Of a stretch of 11,134 nucleotides of DNA, positions 41 through 11,134 are shown one piece after another. Under the pieces are notes generated by a model, which was not told the origin of the DNA, searched no databases, and saw only the letters and a program-made list of their open reading frames with translations. How positions within the stretch are numbered: the stretch's first letter is position 1; each line of letters begins with the position of its first letter. Origin of the DNA: a virus (Duplodnaviria > Heunggongvirae > Uroviricota > Caudoviricetes); IMG/VR virus record IMGVR_UViG_3300000357_000123; one strand, written 5' to 3'. A program made the translations under genes and the position numbers.

Positions 41-206
41 TCGAGTTCCACCTTCTTATTCATAAGGCGGGACACTTTCAGGATTTTGAATTTATTCAAT
101 TTTTCCCTTTCTCCAAAATCTCTCCAAAACGTTTCCCCAAAACTAGGCCACGCATTTTACAACACTTTTTTCCTGAGATGGTGACGGATATTCCATATGG
201 TGTTTG

Positions 207-1325
207 TCAAATAACCAACTTAACCCATTCCTGACCTCGAGTATCGTTATAGCGATCGGTGGTTGCCTGGACTTTATGTCCTAGTAATGTTTTTGTATCG
301 ATACCCTGTGCACGGTACAGCCGTTCTGATAGAGAGCGTTGTTCATGAAATGTTGGCGAAGTTTTTCCTGCTGGTGGAATTATCCCAGCCAGATCCCGTG
401 CTTTGGCAAAGTAGTCGCTCAGGTTGTCTTTACTCATCGGCTTCGGTTGTTTCTGGTGCCGACTATGGATTAGATATGGACTTAATATTCTGTCTCGGCA
501 CCCATCAATAACTTCTTTTAACGTTATCCCAATGGCATCACAGCGTAGTGTAAGCGGTAACGCCAGACGCATTCCGGTTTTTCCCTGGGTGATATGCAAG
601 TGTTCGTTCCACACATCTGAAAAACGCATGTGGCAAATGTCATCACGGCGCTGACCAGTAACAATCGCAAGAAGCATTGCGTTACGGATAAAGTGTTTTT
701 CAGGCGTTGCATTGTAAATTTTTTGCCAGTCTTCCATGGTGAGCCTGGCTCTGGTTACTTTAGGGATCGGTTTACGGGTAGCCTCCGGAGGATTCCATCC
801 AGGAGGAACTTCCCCTGCATGCTGTGCTTCTTTATAAATATCAACCCATAATCCACGATTTACTCTCGCTGTGCTGACCATGTCTTTATCCAGCCACTCA
901 TCCAGTATTAATGCAAAGTCTCTTACTTCCAGTTCTTTCAATGGGTGGTTTCCCAGACGGGAAACCAGGTATGCAGCCATTCGAGTTTTTTCTTTGTGAG
1001 TTGTAGCTGCAATATCTCCATTTTTCAGTCGCGTGTCCTGTATTTTCAGATATCGATCAACCCATGCCTTTAATCTGATACCCCGACGTTTTGTTGCTGA
1101 CGGACTTTCATCAATTTTGCGCATGAAATATTCAGCTTCTGCTGCAGCTATTCGCTGATTGGCTGTGGAAGCGATTTTTTCTGCCTTACCTTTGTCTGTT
1201 CCGAGTCCGTGAAATTTTCCAGTCACAGGATTTTTATACTGGTAGTAAACTCTGCCAGTTCTGCGATCAAACTTTTCGTAAAGACCGGCTACGTCAGTGC
1301 TGTTTTTTCGTGGCCTCGGTGACAT
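207..1325 (-). CDS. int: Lambda-family tyrosine integrase (site-specific recombinase)
   Basis: 372-aa ORF; C-terminal half aligns by eye with lambda Int (VTGQR, HEQRS, LLGHK, and the catalytic Tyr in TDRYNDTRG); AAGGAG RBS upstream of the ATG; the start lies within the 3' end of the upstream excisionase-like ORF if that ORF uses its alternative frame. Confidence 0.95.
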   Translation of the reverse strand: MSPRPRKNSTDVAGLYEKFDRRTGRVYYQYKNPVTGKFHGLGTDKGKAEKIASTANQRIAAAEAEYFMRKIDESPSATKRRGIRLKAWVDRYLKIQDTRLKNGDIAATTHKEKTRMAAYLVSRLGNHPLKELEVRDFALILDEWLDKDMVSTARVNRGLWVDIYKEAQHAGEVPPGWNPPEATRKPIPKVTRARLTMEDWQKIYNATPEKHFIRNAMLLAIVTGQRRDDICHMRFSDVWNEHLHITQGKTGMRLALPLTLRCDAIGITLKEVIDGCRDRILSPYLIHSRHQKQPKPMSKDNLSDYFAKARDLAGIIPPAGKTSPTFHEQRSLSERLYRAQGIDTKTLLGHKVQATTDRYNDTRGQEWVKLVI

Positions 1326-1340
1326 GAGTTAAAATCTCCT

Positions 1341-1643
1341 TCAGTGCATCATCATCGCCAGTATGAATTTCCGGCGCAATTCCCGTTTCACCAGGCCCAA
1401 CAAATACTGCTCGGCGATCTNNNNNNNNNNNNNNNNNNNNNNNNNNNNNNNNNNNNNNNNNNNNNNNNNNNNNNNNNNNNNNNNNNNNNNNNNNNNNNNN
1501 NNNNNNNNACGCCCACGAATTTTTTGTGGCCTTGGAACGATGTATCCTAGTTTTCCGTATTTCACCAGGGTAGTGTTTGTTATTGGGAGACTGAACCGTT
1601 TTGGTTTCCACTCGTCGAGCGTTATCAGGTACTGTTCGCTCAT
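1341..1643 (-). CDS. xis: Excisionase (Xis-like), interrupted by an N-run
   Basis: N-terminus MSEQYLITLDEWKPKRFSLPITNTTLVKYGKLGYIVPRPQKIRGR resembles lambda Xis (YLTLQEW ... IFPPPVKDGREYLF); ATG at 1643 with GGAG upstream; position immediately upstream of int. The C-terminus is uncertain because of the 1421-1508 gap: stop at 1341 in the gap-preserved frame, or at 1294 in the alternative frame that overlaps int. Confidence 0.7.
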   Translation of the reverse strand: MSEQYLITLDEWKPKRFSLPITNTTLVKYGKLGYIVPRPQKIRGRXXXXXXXXXXXXXXXXXXXXXXXXXXXXXXIAEQYLLGLVKRELRRKFILAMMMH

Positions 1644-1704
1644 GGCTATCACTCCGGAACGCGCCAGTTGCAGAATATCAACGACAACTGGCGACGGTTG
1701 AACA

Positions 1705-4146
1705 TTAAAAATCAGCCTGACTCGGGATCAGTTTTTGCCAGATAACTGAAACGTATTTTGCCTGGTAACGGGCGTCATCAAGTGCATTATGGCGCTCACC
1801 TTCGAATGGAATAGCCGTTCTGGCATCGAAGTCTATGGCTTTCCCCAGCTCAACGATTGTGCGTACATCGCGATCGTTGTAGTAACGCCACGGGCAGGGG
1901 ATCCCCTGCCGTTCGTATGAACGGCGCAAAATCGTGTTGTCGAAGTTGGCTCCATTTCCCCAGACCTGAACAAAAAATTCACCGGAGTTTTCGTCGATAA
2001 ATTCCCGCAATTGTAACAGTGCATCATCTAACGGGATTTCATCGGTCATAATGGCAGATTGCGCTTCGCGTGATTGCTTAAGCCACCATTTAATGGTGTC
2101 CCGATCAATGACTCCGCCAGCAGTTTCCAGATCGATAGTCTTACTAAATTCCGGTCCCATATCTCCGGTTTGCGGATCGAAAAATATTGCACCTATTGAG
2201 ATGATCGGGGCATCAGGATTTTTTCCCATGGTTTCAAGGTCGATCATTAGATGGTCACACGTCCTGCTGGTGGATGTGATTTCTTGATGACCGTTCACCT
2301 TAATTGAGTGATCTGCCGTCTCGCCAGTTTCATTATCGCTATCGTGATGCTGATTGCCGCCAGTGTTCTCCTTGTGTGGATGTTCAGCGCCTTCCATTTC
2401 CTCCGGATCATCTTCCTGAACTTCAACCTGATACTCTTCATCGAATGTTTCCTGGTATGTTGCGTCGCCCATCACCGCGCCACAATCAGGGCAGTTGCCG
2501 CCGCCGGTCTGACCGCAGGCGGTGCAGACTTTTTCCACTTCCTGTTGCGCCACTGGTTCGGATTGTTTCGTTTCTGGCTCGTTTTGTAACGCATTTGGGC
2601 TGTTTTGTTCCGCTTTTTGGTCGTTCCGTTCCGATTCATGCTGGTTCTGGTTCACAGAATCGCGAGTCTGGATCCCTTTGACCCATTTCGGATCATTAGG
2701 GTCGCTAATCCCCTCAACAAATTCACCACGCGATACAGCAAGTAACTTATCGGCGTCAGGCTGGCTGATATTGGCTGCCTGCATAATTTTGTTTACTTCG
2801 TCAGCGGTGACTTTTACTTGGTTAGCGGAACTCACCTGCGACTGAGCATCCAGCGACTGCGCGTTCTGGCCATGTTCAGTTGTATCCGGTTCCATTGTTT
2901 CAGTTGTTGCCTGTTCACCTGCCATTGCGTCAGATGGTTGTGGTTTTTCTTCTTCTGTTTCACGCTCAGTAACCACCTCGCGGTTAATTTCTTCCAGGAT
3001 ATCTTTTTCCGGCGTATGCCGGGCAGCTGTGAGAGTTTCCTTGCTGGGGTTCTCGTGATCAGTTTCCGTCAAATAGGCGTTGATATACCCCTGAAGGCGT
3101 CCCGGGTAGTGATAAAATTCAGGGTGTGCGCTTCGGATAAGTGCAAAAATAGCGGCGCGGGAATAGTCCAGAATACCCGGGGTTGCACGAAGTGCTGCGG
3201 ACCATTCTTTGAACGGACTTTCTTTGTTCAGGACTACTTCTTTTGCGCGACGATAAACGCTGCCCGGAATTTCATAAATATTAAAATCCATCGGAAGTGT
3301 GGCTGCTGCAATCTCCACATCCAGTGTGTCGAGGGTGTGTACTAAATTCGGATTGCGATCGGTTTTGTTCCCACCGCCAGCATTAGCACCGGAAGCCGTG
3401 CGGGTGATGCGTGAAACACGATTTCCTTTCATCCACTCTTTTGTCAGCAAACCCCGATCAGTGTAGTCAGCGTCTAGGTATGCTTCGAAAAAAGCAGTTA
3501 TTAGTCCCAGGTCTGAATTACCAGGATTAGGGAAAACTTTGTCAGTGTCACGAACCAGTTTGTGGAGGTCGCGAATCTCCAGCGAGTCGAGCAGACTGGT
3601 TTTATGCGAAATAGCCAGGGCAGTAACAGCCGGTAGTTCTTCAGCCCGTGCAATGTGTAATGCCTGGAGTTCGTCGCGTGAAACGTGCGTTACTGGTTTT
3701 TCGCTGCCGTGTTGAGCAAGCCAACGAATGGGCAGTTCCTGACCGGAGACAGGCAGAAGCATGCTCTCCTCAATCTCAGTCATGGCTTCGCCGTTGATGT
3801 TGGTATTGTCAGTGCTGGCTGGTTTGTCCTGAACAGAGGGGGAAGGGCCGATAAATGTCATTGTGATGCCATCTTTCCCGCCTTTTTCATAGCGATTGCA
3901 GAATTCAGTATCAAACACGCCTTCTGGCGGAAGGTCGTCAACAACGGGCAAATTGACGCGGACGGGTTTTTTAAAGTCGTCTTCATCATAATCGTTGTCA
4001 TCCATTGCGGTAATGCAGCGGGAGATTGCAACAGATAATTTTTTTGCTGTAGTCCAGTAAAAACCACCTTTAATTCCTAGGCGTTTTCTTACTTTGTCAT
4101 TTTTTGCTTCGCAATATAGTGCAAATTCTTCTTTATCAGTGCTCAT
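1705..4146 (-). CDS. RecE-like (exodeoxyribonuclease VIII-like) N-terminal region fused to a C-terminal DEDDh (DnaQ-like) 3'-5' exonuclease domain; probable intact counterpart of Qin YdfE
   Basis: 813-aa ORF. The C-terminal 184 aa (about 1708-2259) carry the three classical DEDDh motifs: MIDLETMG (Exo I), [10 protein letters not shown] (Exo II), [11 protein letters not shown] (Exo III). A C-x2-C-x7-C-x2-C motif ([16 protein letters not shown], about 2479-2528) and an acidic/Q-rich low-complexity linker precede it. The N-terminal region resembles RecE-family prophage proteins from memory. The annotated ATG at 4146 lies 4 nt from the 4151-4247 N-run with no in-frame stop between, so the true N-terminus may be longer. 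Confidence 0.85.
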
Positions 4147-4330
4147 TATTNNNNNNNNNNNNNNNNNNNNNNNNNNNNNNNNNNNNNNNNNNNNNNNNNN
4201 NNNNNNNNNNNNNNNNNNNNNNNNNNNNNNNNNNNNNNNNNNNNNNNCCTCATCACAGATTTAAGGGTGAACAAATCTCTGCCATTGCTGACATATAAGA
4301 ATGAAACTGGATATTTATTACGGTGCTGTT

Positions 4331-4524
4331 TTAAAATCCTGCCGGGATTTCGTTATTATCCTGGTGAATAACTTTATCGACCGGATAACAGTTGCCTGGA
4401 ATTTTCTGTTCGGTTGCTGCTGCCATACATTCCTGCATTGTTCTGTGAACACTGACTGNNNNNNNNNNACTGACTCTCCGGAAACAAGAAAAACCGTCAG
4501 AATAAGTGCAAATACTGGATTCAT
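4331..4524 (-). CDS. ydfD: YdfD-like small protein with hydrophobic N-terminal segment (Qin YdfD lysis-protein family), interrupted by a 10-nt N-run
   Basis: ATG at 4524 overlaps the dicB stop (ATGA) and has an AGGA RBS; N-terminus MNPVFALILTVFLVSGES is TM/signal-like. After the 4459-4468 gap the protein-like frame is the one ending at 4331 (VSVHRTMQECMAAATEQKIPGNCYPVDKVIHQDNNEIPAGF); the gap-preserved frame ending at 4318 is K/R-rich and looks spurious. Confidence 0.55.
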
Positions 4525-4791
4525 TGTGCACATCCTTTTGGCATCAGACGTAAACGGGCCAGCATTGAAACAATGCATACTTTATTTAATAACTCCCNNN
4601 NNNNNNNNNNNNNNNNNNNNNNNNNNNNNNNNNNNNNNNNNNNNNNNNNNNNNNNNNNNNNNNNNNNNNNNNNNNNNNNNNNNNNNNNNNNNNNNNNNNN
4701 NNNNNNNNNNNNTAAATACAGGATTACTGATAGTGACACCAATTTCAAAACAACCTTCAGACGTATTAACGTTTGGTAATAACGTTTTCAT
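4521..4791 (-). CDS. dicB: Cell-division inhibitor DicB (MinC-activating), interrupted by an N-run
   Basis: N-terminus MKTLLPNVNTSEGCFEIGVTISNPVF and C-terminus ELLNKVCIVSMLARLRLMPKGCAQ match E. coli DicB as I recall it; GAGGG RBS 7 nt upstream of the ATG at 4791; sits immediately downstream of DicF as in the Qin dicB operon. The 115-nt N-run is longer than the roughly 33 nt expected for a 62-aa DicB. Confidence 0.8.
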
Positions 4792-5049
4792 TATCGCGCC
4801 CTCAACAATGAGTTTTGTGATGCGGTGCCTGGTGCCTCCAGGTGACGTTAACCAGTTAACAATTAACGCCGGATACAGAGAATCCACCCATAACACTGTT
4901 TTTGGTTTTAACTGTTCCGCGTGCGCTTANNNNNNNNNNNNNNNNNNNNNNNNNNNNNNNNNNNNNNNNNNNNNNNNNNNNNNNNNNNNNNNNNNNNNNN
5001 NNNNNNNNNNNNNNNNNNNNNNNNNNNNCCGCATCACAAAATTCACTTT

Positions 5050-5448: not shown

Positions 5449-5752
5449 TTAACGCGGGTATGTAATCATTCTGGCAATGCTTAATGCCGCTGCTTTTTCC
5501 AGCCTGGTGATATCCTGCTCCAGAGCGGACAGATTTTCAGCCTGCTTAGCTCTGGCTTCATNNNNNNNNNNNNNNNNNNNNNNNNNNNNNNNNNNNNNNN
5601 NNNNNNNNNNNNNNNNNNNNNNNNNNNNNNNNNNNNNNNNNNNNNNNNNNNCATTTCAGATCCTGCGCTGCATTAATTTTCTGGCGCATCCACTCATAAA
5701 GTTCATCATCGGTATAGTCTGGCGCGATGATGACGGGTTCTCGTTTCTGCAT
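5449..5752 (-). CDS. ydfC: YdfC-like small protein of the dicB operon, interrupted by an N-run
   Basis: ATG at 5752 with a GAGGA RBS 6 nt upstream; N-terminus MQKREPVIIAPDYTDDELYEWMRQKINAAQDLK; after the 5562-5651 gap the only protein-like frame reads EARAKQAENLSALEQDITRLEKAAALSIARMITYPR and stops at 5449. Visible residues sum to 68, close to the roughly 72 aa I recall for YdfC, so the real gap is probably about 12 nt rather than 90. Confidence 0.6.
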
Positions 5753-5781: not shown

Positions 5782-5991
5782 TCAGCCGTTAGATTTTGCC
5801 GAACTGGAAAGCGCCTGTTTAAATTCGTTGAAGCTGTGAGCTTCTTCGCCTTCGGCAAGGCCTTCGAAGNNNNNNNNNNNNNNNNNNNNNNNNNNNNNNN
5901 NNNNNNNNNNNNNNNNNNNNNNNNNNNNNNNNNNNNNNNNNNNNNNNNNNNNNNNNNNNNNNNNNNNTTCCATGATTGTGTCAAAATCCAT
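5782..5991 (-). CDS. ydfB: YdfB-like small protein of the dicB operon, interrupted by an N-run
   Basis: ATG at 5991 is 1 nt downstream of the ydfA-like stop (TGAtATG) with a GGTGAG RBS; N-terminus MDFDTIME; after the 5870-5967 gap the frame reads FEGLAEGEEAHSFNEFKQALSSSAKSNG and stops at 5782. Confidence 0.5.
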   Translation of the reverse strand: MDFDTIMEXXXXXXXXXXXXXXXXXXXXXXXXXXXXXXXXXFEGLAEGEEAHSFNEFKQALSSSAKSNG

Positions 5992-6610: not shown

Positions 6611-7165
6611 TTACTGGTTGTACGGTTCGATCNNNNNNNNNNNNNNNNNNNNNNNNNNNNNNNNNNNNNNNNNNNNNNNNNNNNNNNNNNNNNNNNNNNN
6701 NNNNNNNNNNNNNNNNNNNNNNNNNNNNNNNNNTGTTGAACCATTTGGGATGGAAACTCCCCCACCAGATGTTGACATACTGTCACTCTCTAGAACAACT
6801 GCAAAGGTATTGACCGGGATTTCTCCGACAAGCTGCACACAAGAGGTTATTGAGGAATTTTTCATATAATCACTCCAGCTTGCTGCCTGCTGAAGTGATA
6901 GTAGCGGAACCGTTTTTATCGGCGGTAAAGATAGATCAAGCGAATCACCTGTATTTAACTCTCCTCCATTAAGAAGCCAATTTTCGTTTACTTTCAATAT
7001 TTTTGCCAGTGAACTTATGTAACGCGAGGACGGCGCTCCTCCACCGTTCATCCATTGACTTACGGAGCCTTTTGATGCGCCAGTGCCATTGACAAGGTCT
7101 TTGCCTTTCAGGTTTAGCGCATGCATACGTTGGGTTATGCGTTCAGATATAGTTTGCTTGCTCAT
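6611..7165 (-). CDS. cI: CI-type prophage repressor (XRE-family HTH N-terminal domain plus S24 LexA-like autopeptidase C-terminal domain), interrupted by an N-run
   Basis: 184-aa ORF; HTH signature (GTGASKGSVSQWMNGGGAPSSRYISSLAKILKVNENWLLNG); S24 catalytic-serine motif ESDSM followed by the glycine-rich loop. Divergent from the cro-like gene across a 91-bp region. The C-terminal domain looks too short (about 54 aa after the Ser), so the 6633-6733 N-run probably hides more sequence than its length. Confidence 0.85.
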   Translation of the reverse strand: MSKQTISERITQRMHALNLKGKDLVNGTGASKGSVSQWMNGGGAPSSRYISSLAKILKVNENWLLNGGELNTGDSLDLSLPPIKTVPLLSLQQAASWSDYMKNSSITSCVQLVGEIPVNTFAVVLESDSMSTSGGGVSIPNGSTXXXXXXXXXXXXXXXXXXXXXXXXXXXXXXXXXXIEPYNQ

Positions 7166-7256: not shown

Positions 7257-7576
7257 ATGAAAAAATCAGAAGTATTAGGCTATTTTGNNNNNNNNNNNNN
7301 NNNNNNNNNNNNNNNNNNNNNNNNNNNNNNNNNNNNNNNNNNNNNNNNNNNNNNNNNNNNNNNNNNNNNNNNNNNNNNNNNNNNNNNNNNCTAGGAACGT
7401 CAAAAACCACAGTCAGCATGTGGGGGGAAGAGGTTCCGTGGAAATGGGCGTTGCTAATTCAGGCAGTCACTGCCGGGGCGCTCAAATATGAGTTACACAT
7501 ACCGACGGTTGTCATTCCCGGTTCTGATCATAATCCGCCTTCTAACCAAGGGGGGATTCATGAAAATCAAGCATGA
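7257..7576 (+). CDS. Cro/YdaS-like small HTH regulator, interrupted by an N-run
   Basis: ATG at 7257 with GGAG 6 nt upstream (MKKSEVLGYF...); after the 7288-7390 gap the protein-like frame reads LGTSKTTVSMWGEEVPWKWALLIQAVTAGALKYELHIPTVVIPGSDHNPPSNQGGIHENQA with TGA at 7574-7576; first gene rightward of the repressor. Confidence 0.6.
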
Positions 7577-8056: not shown

Positions 8057-9210
8057 ATGGCTAACGCCTGGCTCAGATTATGGCATGACATGCCAAATGA
8101 CCCTAAGTGGCGAACAATTGCCAGGGTGTCAGGGCAGCCAATTGCAACAGTGATGGCAGTGTATATCCACCTCCTGGTGAGCGCGTCACGAAATGTCACG
8201 CGAGGTCACATTGATGTCACGACAGAAGATTTGGCAAGTGCGCTCGACGTGACAGAAGAGGTAATTGATTCAATTTTGCAGACGATGCAGGGGCGGGTAC
8301 TTGATGGTGATTTAATCACTGGATGGGAAAAACGCCAGGTGCTGAAAGAGGACAACGGCAATATTTCGCAAACCGCAAAATCTCCGGCAGAGCGCAAGAG
8401 GGCGCAGCGAGAGAGGGAAAGAAAGCGGGAACAAAATGGCGATTGTCACGGCGAGTCACGAAATGTCACGCACATGTCACGACGAGTCACGACAGATAAA
8501 GATACAGATAAAGATACAGATCAAGAAGATCAAAACACTATGGTCCATGGCGTAAAAAACGCCACGAACCAGGCAGGGGATGTTCAGACCGTCACTCCTG
8601 GCCAGCCCGCAGGCACGACACCGGAAGCCGATTCAGCGTATGCGCTGAAAGCCGATTCGGGCGCTGTGCAGCAGGTGATGACCGCAAGGCAGGAGCAATC
8701 ACACCAACTTCAGCAGCCTGAAGCCGATTCCGCCATTCAGCGGGAAGCCGATCGGGTAGTCCCGGAAAACACCGGGCAGCCTGTGGGACGAGTGGATTAT
8801 CCTGATGTGTTCGAACAGGTCTGGCGGGAATACCCGTTGCGTGCCGGGGCAAACCCGAAGAANNNNNNNNNNNNNNNNNNNNNNNNNNNNNNNNNNNNNN
8901 NNNNNNNNNNNNNNNNNNNNNNNNNNNNNNNNNNNNNNNNNNNNNNNNNNNNNNNNNNNNNNNNNNNNNNNNNTTACGCGAGGGGGTGCCACCAGAGGCC
9001 ATGCTGGATGGCGTGAGGCGTTACGCAAGATACCTTGCGGCTACCGGGAAAACGGGAACGGAATTTGTTCAGCGAGCGACGACGTTTTTTGGACCGGACC
9101 GGAATTTTGAAAACCCCTGGCTGCTCCCGGTAAGCGGCACGAACAACCAGCGTTGTGTGAATCATATTTCTGAACCGGATAACGAAATTCCGCCGGGCTT
9201 CAGGGGGTAA
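8057..9210 (+). CDS. Replication initiation / replisome-organizer protein (YdaU/DUF1376-like N-terminus) containing the probable origin iterons, interrupted by an N-run
   Basis: ATG at 8057 after GAGGTG; N-terminus MANAWLRLWHDMPNDPKWRTIARV fits the phage replisome-organizer N-terminal pattern (W.KL... DPK) as I recall it. After the 8863-8973 gap the protein-like frame (LREGVPPEAMLDGVRRYARYLAATGKTGTEFVQRATTFFGPDRNFENPWLLP...) runs to TAA at 9208-9210. The gap-preserved frame ends at 9016, so one gene versus two is unresolved. Confidence 0.6.
8185..8221 (+). repeat. Iteron array 1: four direct GTCAC(G/A) repeats at 10-11 bp spacing
   Basis: GTCACG at 8185, 8195 and 8216 and GTCACA at 8205; an inverted copy CGTGAC at 8248-8253; the 17-mer GTCACGAAATGTCACGC is repeated exactly at 8455-8471. 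Confidence 0.5.
8445..8516 (+). repeat. Iteron array 2: five direct GTCACG repeats at 10-11 bp spacing followed by a tandem 12-bp A-rich repeat
   Basis: GTCACG at 8445, 8455, 8465, 8476 and 8486; then GATAAAGATACA twice (8493-8516) and an A-rich stretch, resembling an iteron-plus-AT-rich origin layout. Confidence 0.5.
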
Positions 9211-10180: not shown

Positions 10181-10363
10181 ATGCGAAAGTTTAAAATAAT
10201 TATTGAAACGGGAATAGCCGGTGGAGATTTCGAGGATGAATTCGAAGTGGATGATGATGCGACGCCTGATGAAATACATGACGAAGCAAAAGATATTTTC
10301 TTTAACTACTGCAATTACTCATATCACGAAATAAAAGACAAAGAGGAAGAACAAAATGGCTGA
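10181..10363 (+). CDS. Small highly acidic hypothetical protein (60 aa)
   Basis: Uninterrupted ORF MRKFKIIIETGIAGGDFEDEFEVDDDATPDEIHDEAKDIFFNYCNYSYHEIKDKEEEQNG with 19 Asp/Glu against 6 Lys/Arg; start context described in the hairpin feature. Confidence 0.55.
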   Translation: MRKFKIIIETGIAGGDFEDEFEVDDDATPDEIHDEAKDIFFNYCNYSYHEIKDKEEEQNG

Positions 10364-10610
10364 TTTTGGTTCAACTAAATACAACGTCAGTTTTGAAGAA
10401 TGGCATGAACTGTTANNNNNNNNNNNNNNNNNNNNNNNNNNNNNNNNNNNNNNNNNNNNNNNNNNNNNNNNNNNNNNNNNNNNNNNNNNNNNNNNNNNNN
10501 NNNNNNNNNNNNNTGGTGGCAGTGCTGCTGATGCTGAAGCATGGCGTGATGATTATGAAGCAGGAAAAACTCCGGTCGAAGCATATTGTGATGAGTGGGG
10601 CGATGAATGA
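10356..10610 (+). CDS. Small acidic hypothetical protein, interrupted by an N-run
   Basis: ATG at 10356 with an AGAGGA RBS 8 nt upstream, overlapping the previous stop; visible parts MADFGSTKYNVSFEEWHELL and GGSAADAEAWRDDYEAGKTPVEAYCDEWGDE; stop TGA at 10608-10610 overlaps the next ATG (ATGA). Frame across the 10416-10513 gap is unverified. Confidence 0.5.
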   Translation: MADFGSTKYNVSFEEWHELLXXXXXXXXXXXXXXXXXXXXXXXXXXXXXXXXXGGSAADAEAWRDDYEAGKTPVEAYCDEWGDE

Positions 10611-10864
10611 GCGAGGTTAATTATCAGGAAGGGCATGAAACGGCGGGGCAAGCAAAAACAGTGGCATGGCGATATCGCTACGTGAAAAAAAAGGCGTTAC
10701 GGACTTTCAGGGGAAGTAGTGGTCTGGTGACTGGAAATATGTACCGAAAAAAGAGGATTGTAACGACAGGCCGAACTATGAAATTCAGGCCTTATTCACT
10801 GCCTCGCCAGTCCCGGTTACATCAGAAGAACTGGTTAAAGCTGTGCACTTTTATGAACAACTAA
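10607..10864 (+). CDS. Hypothetical ORF (85 aa) with possible recoding or decay; product uncertain
   Basis: ATG at 10607 coupled to the upstream stop. The N-terminal part is plausible, but the C-terminal part is K/R-rich and overlaps a better-looking open frame (10720-10920, -1 frame, no start codon). Two A_AAA_AAG heptamers lie in frame at 10687-10693 and 10747-10753. Confidence 0.3.
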   Translation: MSEVNYQEGHETAGQAKTVAWRYRYVKKKALRTFRGSSGLVTGNMYRKKRIVTTGRTMKFRPYSLPRQSRLHQKNWLKLCTFMNN

Positions 10865-11093
10865 AACGCGAAAATCCACCAGCATCCGGAAACCTGATTA
10901 CAGATTCCCAGATAAGGCAATGAGCTACCTGGCGCAGAACGGGCTGATAAGTATGGGGAATGTTTTACGATGAATATTTAGACTAAAGAGTTTGTAACGC
11001 TATGTAAGTGATTTTTTCTGGTTTAGATATTTATATGTCCGGCCAAACTGAGGTGTGTTTAAATGTAATTGCACATTGATTGTAGGAGGAATA

Positions 11094-11134
11094 ATGAAAA
11101 ACGCATTGCAGTTTTTGTTTGTTGCGTTCTGGTT
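11094..11134 (+). CDS. 5' end of a gene encoding a protein with a hydrophobic N-terminus (MKNALQFLFVAFW...), running off the right edge
   Basis: ATG at 11094 preceded by AGGAGGA (11084-11090); follows a roughly 170-bp AT-rich non-coding stretch. Confidence 0.4.
   Translation, partial: MKNALQFLFVAFW

Follow-up and report, generated by a model that had tools for sequence, protein, structure and literature searches.

The closest described systems to the locus considered here are the Escherichia coli dnaX site, where the slippery heptamer A_AAA_AAG is accompanied by an upstream Shine–Dalgarno (SD) sequence and a downstream stem-loop, and the orfA–orfB arrangement of IS3 and IS911, where the same heptamer serves an overlapping second ORF. 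Stimulators of frameshifting usually lie about 5–8 nt downstream of the slip site. Heptamers without stimulators have also been surveyed in E. coli by Sharma et al. (2014; PMC4066793), who reported frameshifting that exceeded the background (about 0.055%) by 2- to 10-fold, with unstimulated rates of about 0.1–0.5%, and listed A_AAA_AAG with those motifs that pass 0.10% when no stimulator is present. The same work discussed AAAAAAA as a possible source of mRNA indels through transcriptional slippage.

Two copies of this heptamer occur in a sequence assigned to a tailed virus (IMG/VR record IMGVR_UViG_3300000357_000123), the whole 11,134-nt stretch of which is called the window; all window coordinates given here refer to the plus strand. 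An ORF of 85 aa (10607–10864) opens with an ATG at 10607–10609 that overlaps the TGA of the upstream ORF (10356–10610) as ATGA, and it contains an A8 homopolymer at 10685–10692. Read directly from the window sequence, both AAAAAAG copies, heptamer 1 at 10687–10693 and heptamer 2 at 10747–10753, lie in X_XXY_YYZ phase with the 10607 frame. A TAG at 10717–10719 interrupts the −1 frame (phase 10609), which from there on is open to the TGA at 10921–10923 and encodes a peptide of 67 aa. A sequence-only reading of this DNA had drawn attention to precisely this geometry and proposed programmed frameshifting, with a pseudogene or a homopolymer sequencing error as alternatives. The ORF, the A8 run, the two phased heptamers, the TAG and the TGA are all located where that reading had placed them, and the −1 frame encodes exactly the 67-aa peptide that it quoted. 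Its description of the product of slippage at heptamer 2 was correct in the 56 codons taken from the −1 frame, but the zero-frame portion amounts to 49 codons instead of about 47; the predicted product has 105 aa, with the junction peptide ...NMYRKKEDCNDRPNYEIQALF... (...NMYRKK, then EDCNDR...).

The interval 10607–10973 is almost certainly a pseudogene, judged by its homology to intact genes: the decayed copy of a small early-region phrog_660 gene of an E. coli lambdoid prophage of the DicB/YdaT/Hok type. The alignment of loci from seven E. coli and two phages identified intact single ORFs in the same context (DUF7167 gene, small gene, target, hok) in strains AVS0225 and 99-3311, whose DNA is approximately 91–94% identical to the window. 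The AVS0225 allele (315 nt, 104 aa, WP_001529162.1) has CTG at the position of the TAG, and that of 99-3311 (516 nt, 171 aa, WP_001289995.1) has CAG; both carry A6 where the window has A8, and both read CCG ACA AAA GAG at heptamer 2. A protein search found homologues of 171 aa to be numerous. Since these orthologues are continuous ORFs with a different A-run, they speak against recoding on the terms of the sequence-only reading itself, which had anticipated a difference of one A; the single ORF was found as anticipated, but the difference consists of two As plus a nonsense substitution.

Pairwise alignment with the 171-aa gene resolves the decay into five changes. The first is the gain of two As, by which GTG AAA AAA GGC became GTG A8 GGC; the A8 homopolymer thus corresponds to an ancestral A6 (AAA AAA, Lys-Lys) and appears as a 2-nt gap against the intact gene. 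The second is a C-to-T nonsense substitution, CAG to TAG, at 10717–10719, a codon that specifies Gln (CAG) or Leu (CTG) in the intact E. coli orthologues. The third, ACA to AAA at 10748–10750 (Thr to Lys), created the second AAAAAAG, where the native codons now read CCG AAA AAA GAG. The remaining two are deletions: one of 90 nt (30 codons, in frame) with its junction at 10868/10869, where the direct repeat AATCC(G/A)CCAG flanks the missing segment in the 171-aa form, and one of 61 nt (out of frame) at 10888/10889, which put the native C-terminus into a third frame. The 171-aa form consequently contains 151 nt that are absent from the window.

Remnants of the ancestral ORF are therefore found in all three frames: the zero frame up to the A-run, the −1 frame from 10693 to 10888, and the +1 frame thereafter. 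The native N-terminal remnant (10607–10692, MSEVNYQEGHETAGQAKTVAWRYRYVKK followed by K) is read in the ATG frame and aligns with the intact orthologues and with phrog_660 positions 34–63; only about the first 31 residues of the zero-frame ORF have homology. Between the A-run and the stop lies the native-frame stretch GVTDFQGK (10693–10716), which is conserved in intact homologues. The middle of the native frame (10720–10920, WSGDWKYVPKKEDCNDRPNYEIQALF...), the portion previously described as the −1 frame, runs on past the 61-nt deletion as a non-native tail that ends at the TGA at 10921–10923. Finally, the native C-terminal tail, DKAMSYLAQNGLISMGNVLR with its TGA (10911–10973), is stranded in the +1 frame (phase 10608), cut off from the ORF.

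Protein-level comparison was based on the best 120 of 1564 homologous protein clusters. All 33 homologous proteins in that set that span the site have VKK at the A-run, and in the same 33 the residue at the TAG position is P, Q, M, L or R, the shared motif being VKK-(G/D)VTDF...-X-W.GDWKY with X standing for those five residues. At the heptamer 2 site, 101 of 102 homologous proteins carry T (TKED or TKEG) and one carries K (KKED). Among the E. coli and phage alleles, PKKE is present in all seven TAG alleles sampled and PTKE in both intact ones, and the co-occurrence of ACA-to-AAA with TAG is probably due to linkage within one pseudogene lineage. The seven TAG alleles differ at two synonymous and two non-synonymous codons, which are too few to test selection.

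The AVS0225 allele itself departs from the 171-aa form. Its 104-aa gene (locus L005, 601–915, equivalent to window 10607–10923) has both the 90-nt and the 61-nt deletion, so that it is missing the conserved C-terminal half and matches phrog_660 positions 34–124 only; from this truncation, the "intact" 104-aa gene may itself be non-functional. Substitutions are also concentrated in it around the position of the TAG (GAGAATCTGTGGGTT against GGGAAGTAGTGGTCT), a pattern suggestive of a recombination patch.

Judged by profile homology, the target is a copy of phrog_660, a family in the PHROG category "function unknown". In a PHROG scan the 171-aa orthologue matched it with E = 6.4e-72 over profile positions 34–193 of 193. 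When the window sequence was repaired, with A6 in place of A8 and Q in place of the stop, residues 2–99 matched positions 34–124 continuously (97 bits, E = 2.7e-27). The 85-aa zero-frame ORF reached 17.6 bits, over residues 2–31 only, and the trans-frame product of heptamer 2 reached 82.7 bits, below the simple repair. The stranded +1-frame tail matched positions 174–193, the last 20 of the profile (E = 3.8e-4). Because phrog_660 homology runs through heptamer 1 and across the TAG, a mutated single ORF fits the data and recoding between two ORFs does not.

Searches of the 171-aa orthologue against Pfam, NCBIfam and PADLOC returned nothing significant; an AphA_like match was rejected as sub-threshold (14.7 bits against a cutoff of 27). 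A sequence-profile search of the PDB found no relatives. AlphaFold2 modeling of a 171-aa homologue (P0004, with a 47-sequence alignment) gave a poor model with a mean pLDDT of 55 and a pTM of 0.33, in which only residues ~20–62, a small β-sheet, reached a pLDDT of about 80, which is moderate confidence. The family is also mosaic: some of the listed phrog_660 homologues, which range from 109 to 264 aa, additionally bear ead/Ea22-like (PF13935) or DUF551 (PF04448) domains, with query coverage of about 60–67%.

The A-tract is polymorphic across E. coli. Alleles were counted with allele-specific 81–84-mers as megablast queries against complete E. coli genomes, and the counts are given as ranges, since the band of at least 99% identity holds approximately 17–27 partial alignments, as shown by the A9 query. 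A6+TAG is the commonest allele (about 470–488 records), followed by A8+TAG (about 336–353 records, 83-mer query), A7+TAG (about 58–75 records) and A9+TAG (one record), and the TAG is present in every A6–A9 allele sampled or counted. Translation of these alleles would give 36–37 aa from A6 or A9, about 40 aa from A7 and 85 aa from A8, with no full-length product from any of them. Dead alleles are also carried by sequenced phages: vB_EcoS-640R1 carries A8+TAG, and PhiR42_1 combines A6+TAG with further stops, so that the gene would be dispensable if these are viable phages. The alleles of strain WG5 and of PhiR42_1 contain additional stops and a 4-nt deletion. Such variation of the lesions among alleles, with A6–A9 on a TAG background and extra stops, is what is expected without selection.

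Programmed −1 frameshifting of the dnaX/IS3 type, by which slippage at heptamer 2 would produce a functional 105-aa fusion and slippage at heptamer 1 a short gamma-like product, was the lead idea of the sequence-only reading and has become very improbable. In its favor stand the correct phasing of both heptamers, an open and protein-like −1 frame, and the membership of A_AAA_AAG in the efficient class (PMC4066793). The phasing and the open frame have another origin, however: the "−1 frame" is protein-like because it is the native frame of the ancestral gene, and the heptamers stand in slip phase because two inserted As have moved the upstream frame out of register. A ribosome displaced by two additional As meets any native AAA AAA G as A_AAA_AAG, and a −1 slip restores the native frame. 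Heptamer 1 is in fact the native AAA AAA G, which is slip-phased only with respect to the displaced upstream frame. Since both copies are native-frame AAA-AAA-G, that is, Lys-Lys followed by a G-initial codon, their occurrence in phase 60 nt apart is not an independent coincidence. Furthermore, AAAAAAG is not enriched in the window: counting both strands it occurs four times, and dinucleotide shuffles predict 3.94 ± 2.0.

Conservation also argues against a programmed event. The slip phase exists in the A8 allele only; A6 and A7 alleles are common, and ribosomes on the A6+TAG allele, commoner than A8+TAG, or on A7+TAG are left out of that frame. Heptamer 2 is missing from the intact orthologues and from all but one of the homologues compared. 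Homology continuing past heptamer 1 and the TAG indicates that the native protein was not a trans-frame product; the fusion would include 20 non-homologous residues and scores below the simple repair, and the C-terminal half of the native protein has in any case been removed or cut off.

The search for stimulators was also unfavorable. A weak hairpin at 10768–10792 (GGCCGAA...UUCAGGCC, −8.7 kcal/mol, z = −2.05) starts 14 nt past heptamer 2 and might be counted for frameshifting, but this spacer itself weighs against such a role, the hairpin falls within RPNYEIQAL, a highly conserved stretch of coding sequence, and it does not convince as a stimulator. Folds after heptamer 1 were no better than shuffled sequences (z = −0.14 and +0.40), neither heptamer has an SD-like GGAG or AGGA in the 20 nt or so before it, and an Rfam scan of 10300–11134 at E ≤ 1 yielded no frameshift element, only a chance snoRNA match. 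A_AAA_AAG belongs to the most slip-prone class of E. coli heptamers, and on physical grounds a small amount of −1 product from heptamer 2 is likely; given the low unstimulated rates (PMC4066793), at most a trace of slipped product would be expected here.

A phase-variable (contingency) or transcriptional-slippage switch, in which expression is toggled as the A-tract, in DNA or mRNA, changes length, is hardly credible. Tract polymorphism from A6 to A9 across E. coli would suit such a switch, as would the possible generation of mRNA indels at AAAAAAA (PMC4066793); yet the TAG lies downstream in all tract alleles, so that no length restores a full-length product, the intact alleles are uniformly A6 (33 of 33), and the C-terminal half is lost as well.

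The chance that the A8 run is a homopolymer sequencing or assembly error hiding a true tract of A6 or A9, the second alternative of the sequence-only reading, is negligible: homopolymers are error-prone and A6–A9 variants do occur among assemblies, but the A8+TAG 83-mer recurs unchanged in about 336–353 independent complete genomes, produced by many different laboratories, as well as in a sequenced phage, the entire 621-nt flank is 100% identical in 21 genomes, and the gene would still be broken with A6 or A9, since the TAG stays. A8 is a real, inherited allele.

The decayed prophage gene therefore remains the best explanation, and a plausible course of its decay can be outlined. The nonsense mutation would have come first, and the A-tract would then have drifted by replication slippage in an already dead gene under relaxed selection; we infer this order from allele frequencies, not phylogeny, A6+TAG being the commonest allele. 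In the A8 allele, ribosomes that start at the ATG at 10607, probably by translational coupling with the upstream gene across the ATGA overlap, would now make a junk peptide of 85 aa. A 37-aa fragment equivalent to the A6+TAG product with one additional Lys would result from A9 transcripts or from occasional −1 slips at heptamer 1, and rare −1 events at heptamer 2 would give the 105-aa chimera, with 20 junk residues and without the native C-terminal half. Selection on any of these three products is unlikely. It is a long shot that in the A8 lineage (approximately 340–350 complete genomes) unstimulated −1 slippage at heptamer 2, or slippage by RNA polymerase on A8, supplies a little 105-aa chimera with residual activity, a "pseudo-pseudogene". 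If this were true, the chimera would keep the β-rich core of the phrog_660 protein, and the locus would represent rescue by adventitious recoding.

The pseudogene status of this locus is already known from RefSeq annotation, and no new biology is implied. The window derives from E. coli: the segment 10514–11134 (621 nt) is 100% identical in at least 21 complete genomes of this species, and 2185 of 5426 genomes contain related sequence; about 109 DNA matches of the target lie on plasmids. In strain EcPF5 the locus belongs to a lambdoid prophage inserted next to potCD, whose genes run int, xis, exo, dicB, ydfABC, a LexA-family repressor-like gene with cro/cI, ydaT, DUF977, DUF7167, a 58-aa gene, the target and sok/hokD. 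There, RefSeq/PGAP lists HR070_RS25405 (NZ_CP054236.1, 3220790–3221106) as a pseudogene, "hypothetical protein; frameshifted; internal stop". This entry (locus L001, 11094–11410) corresponds to window 10607–10923 and has the same boundaries as the interval singled out by the sequence-only reading, whose pseudogene alternative is borne out both by this annotation and by the intact A6 orthologues with CAG or CTG. The 317 nt are 100% identical in the two sequences, as is the flank 10514–11134, and they stand in the same context; the entry represents this very locus in a second strain, with no differences. For the A7 alleles of strains EH01 and JX21, the PGAP pseudogene extends to the distal TGA, equivalent to 10973.

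Several further observations concern the neighborhood. In strain EC07 (locus L004, 475–915) an A6+TAG copy directly follows a fragment of the DUF977 gene, and PGAP merges the fragment and the dead gene into one pseudogene, "DUF977 family protein, internal stop"; the abutment of the two indicates a different rearrangement upstream of the same dead gene. Past the end of the window, at 11850–12021 of L001, Rfam identifies the sok antitoxin RNA (106.7 bits) immediately upstream of hokD and overlapping its start, an arrangement that is the hok/sok module expected for a DicB/Hok-type prophage. A hydrophobic ORF of 59 aa (MKNALQFLFVAFWLFVSCMPIIFTARYMEKVDVLILIFGYINALFLGVFMAVMCIEYWR), whose ATG has a strong SD (GTAGGAGGAATAATG), lies between the pseudogene and sok/hokD; it occupies window 11095–11134 (+), runs off the window end and continues in L001 (11582–11760). 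This ORF is unannotated by PGAP in EcPF5 and may be a small membrane protein. The window also contains eleven runs of N, mostly of about 90–115 nt (1421–1508, 4151–4247, 4459–4468, 4598–4712, 4930–5028, 5562–5651, 5870–5967, 6633–6733, 7288–7390, 8863–8973 and 10416–10513), the last of which interrupts the gene at 10356–10610 just upstream of the pseudogene. As the unmasked parts match EcPF5 at 99.9%, these runs look like deliberate masking and not like assembly gaps.

The significance of the negative result lies in how the signal arose. A frameshift mutation within a Lys-Lys AAA AAA G tract mimics a dnaX-like heptamer followed by a protein-like −1 frame, and after such an indel every later native AAA-AAA-G also resembles a slip site. 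Recoding scans should accordingly treat this geometry as a signature of homopolymer indels unless orthologues conserve the two-frame arrangement.

Compared with the known systems, the locus thus shares the A_AAA_AAG heptamer, in correct phase, with the dnaX site and with IS3/IS911 orfA–orfB, and the stop that closes the −1 frame soon after heptamer 1 recalls the short gamma product of dnaX. Unlike dnaX and IS3, its heptamer and phase are not conserved, and neither an SD-like element nor a convincing stem-loop accompanies them. Moreover, while the −1 frame of IS3 and IS911 is an overlapping second ORF, the −1 frame here is the single frame of the ancestral gene.
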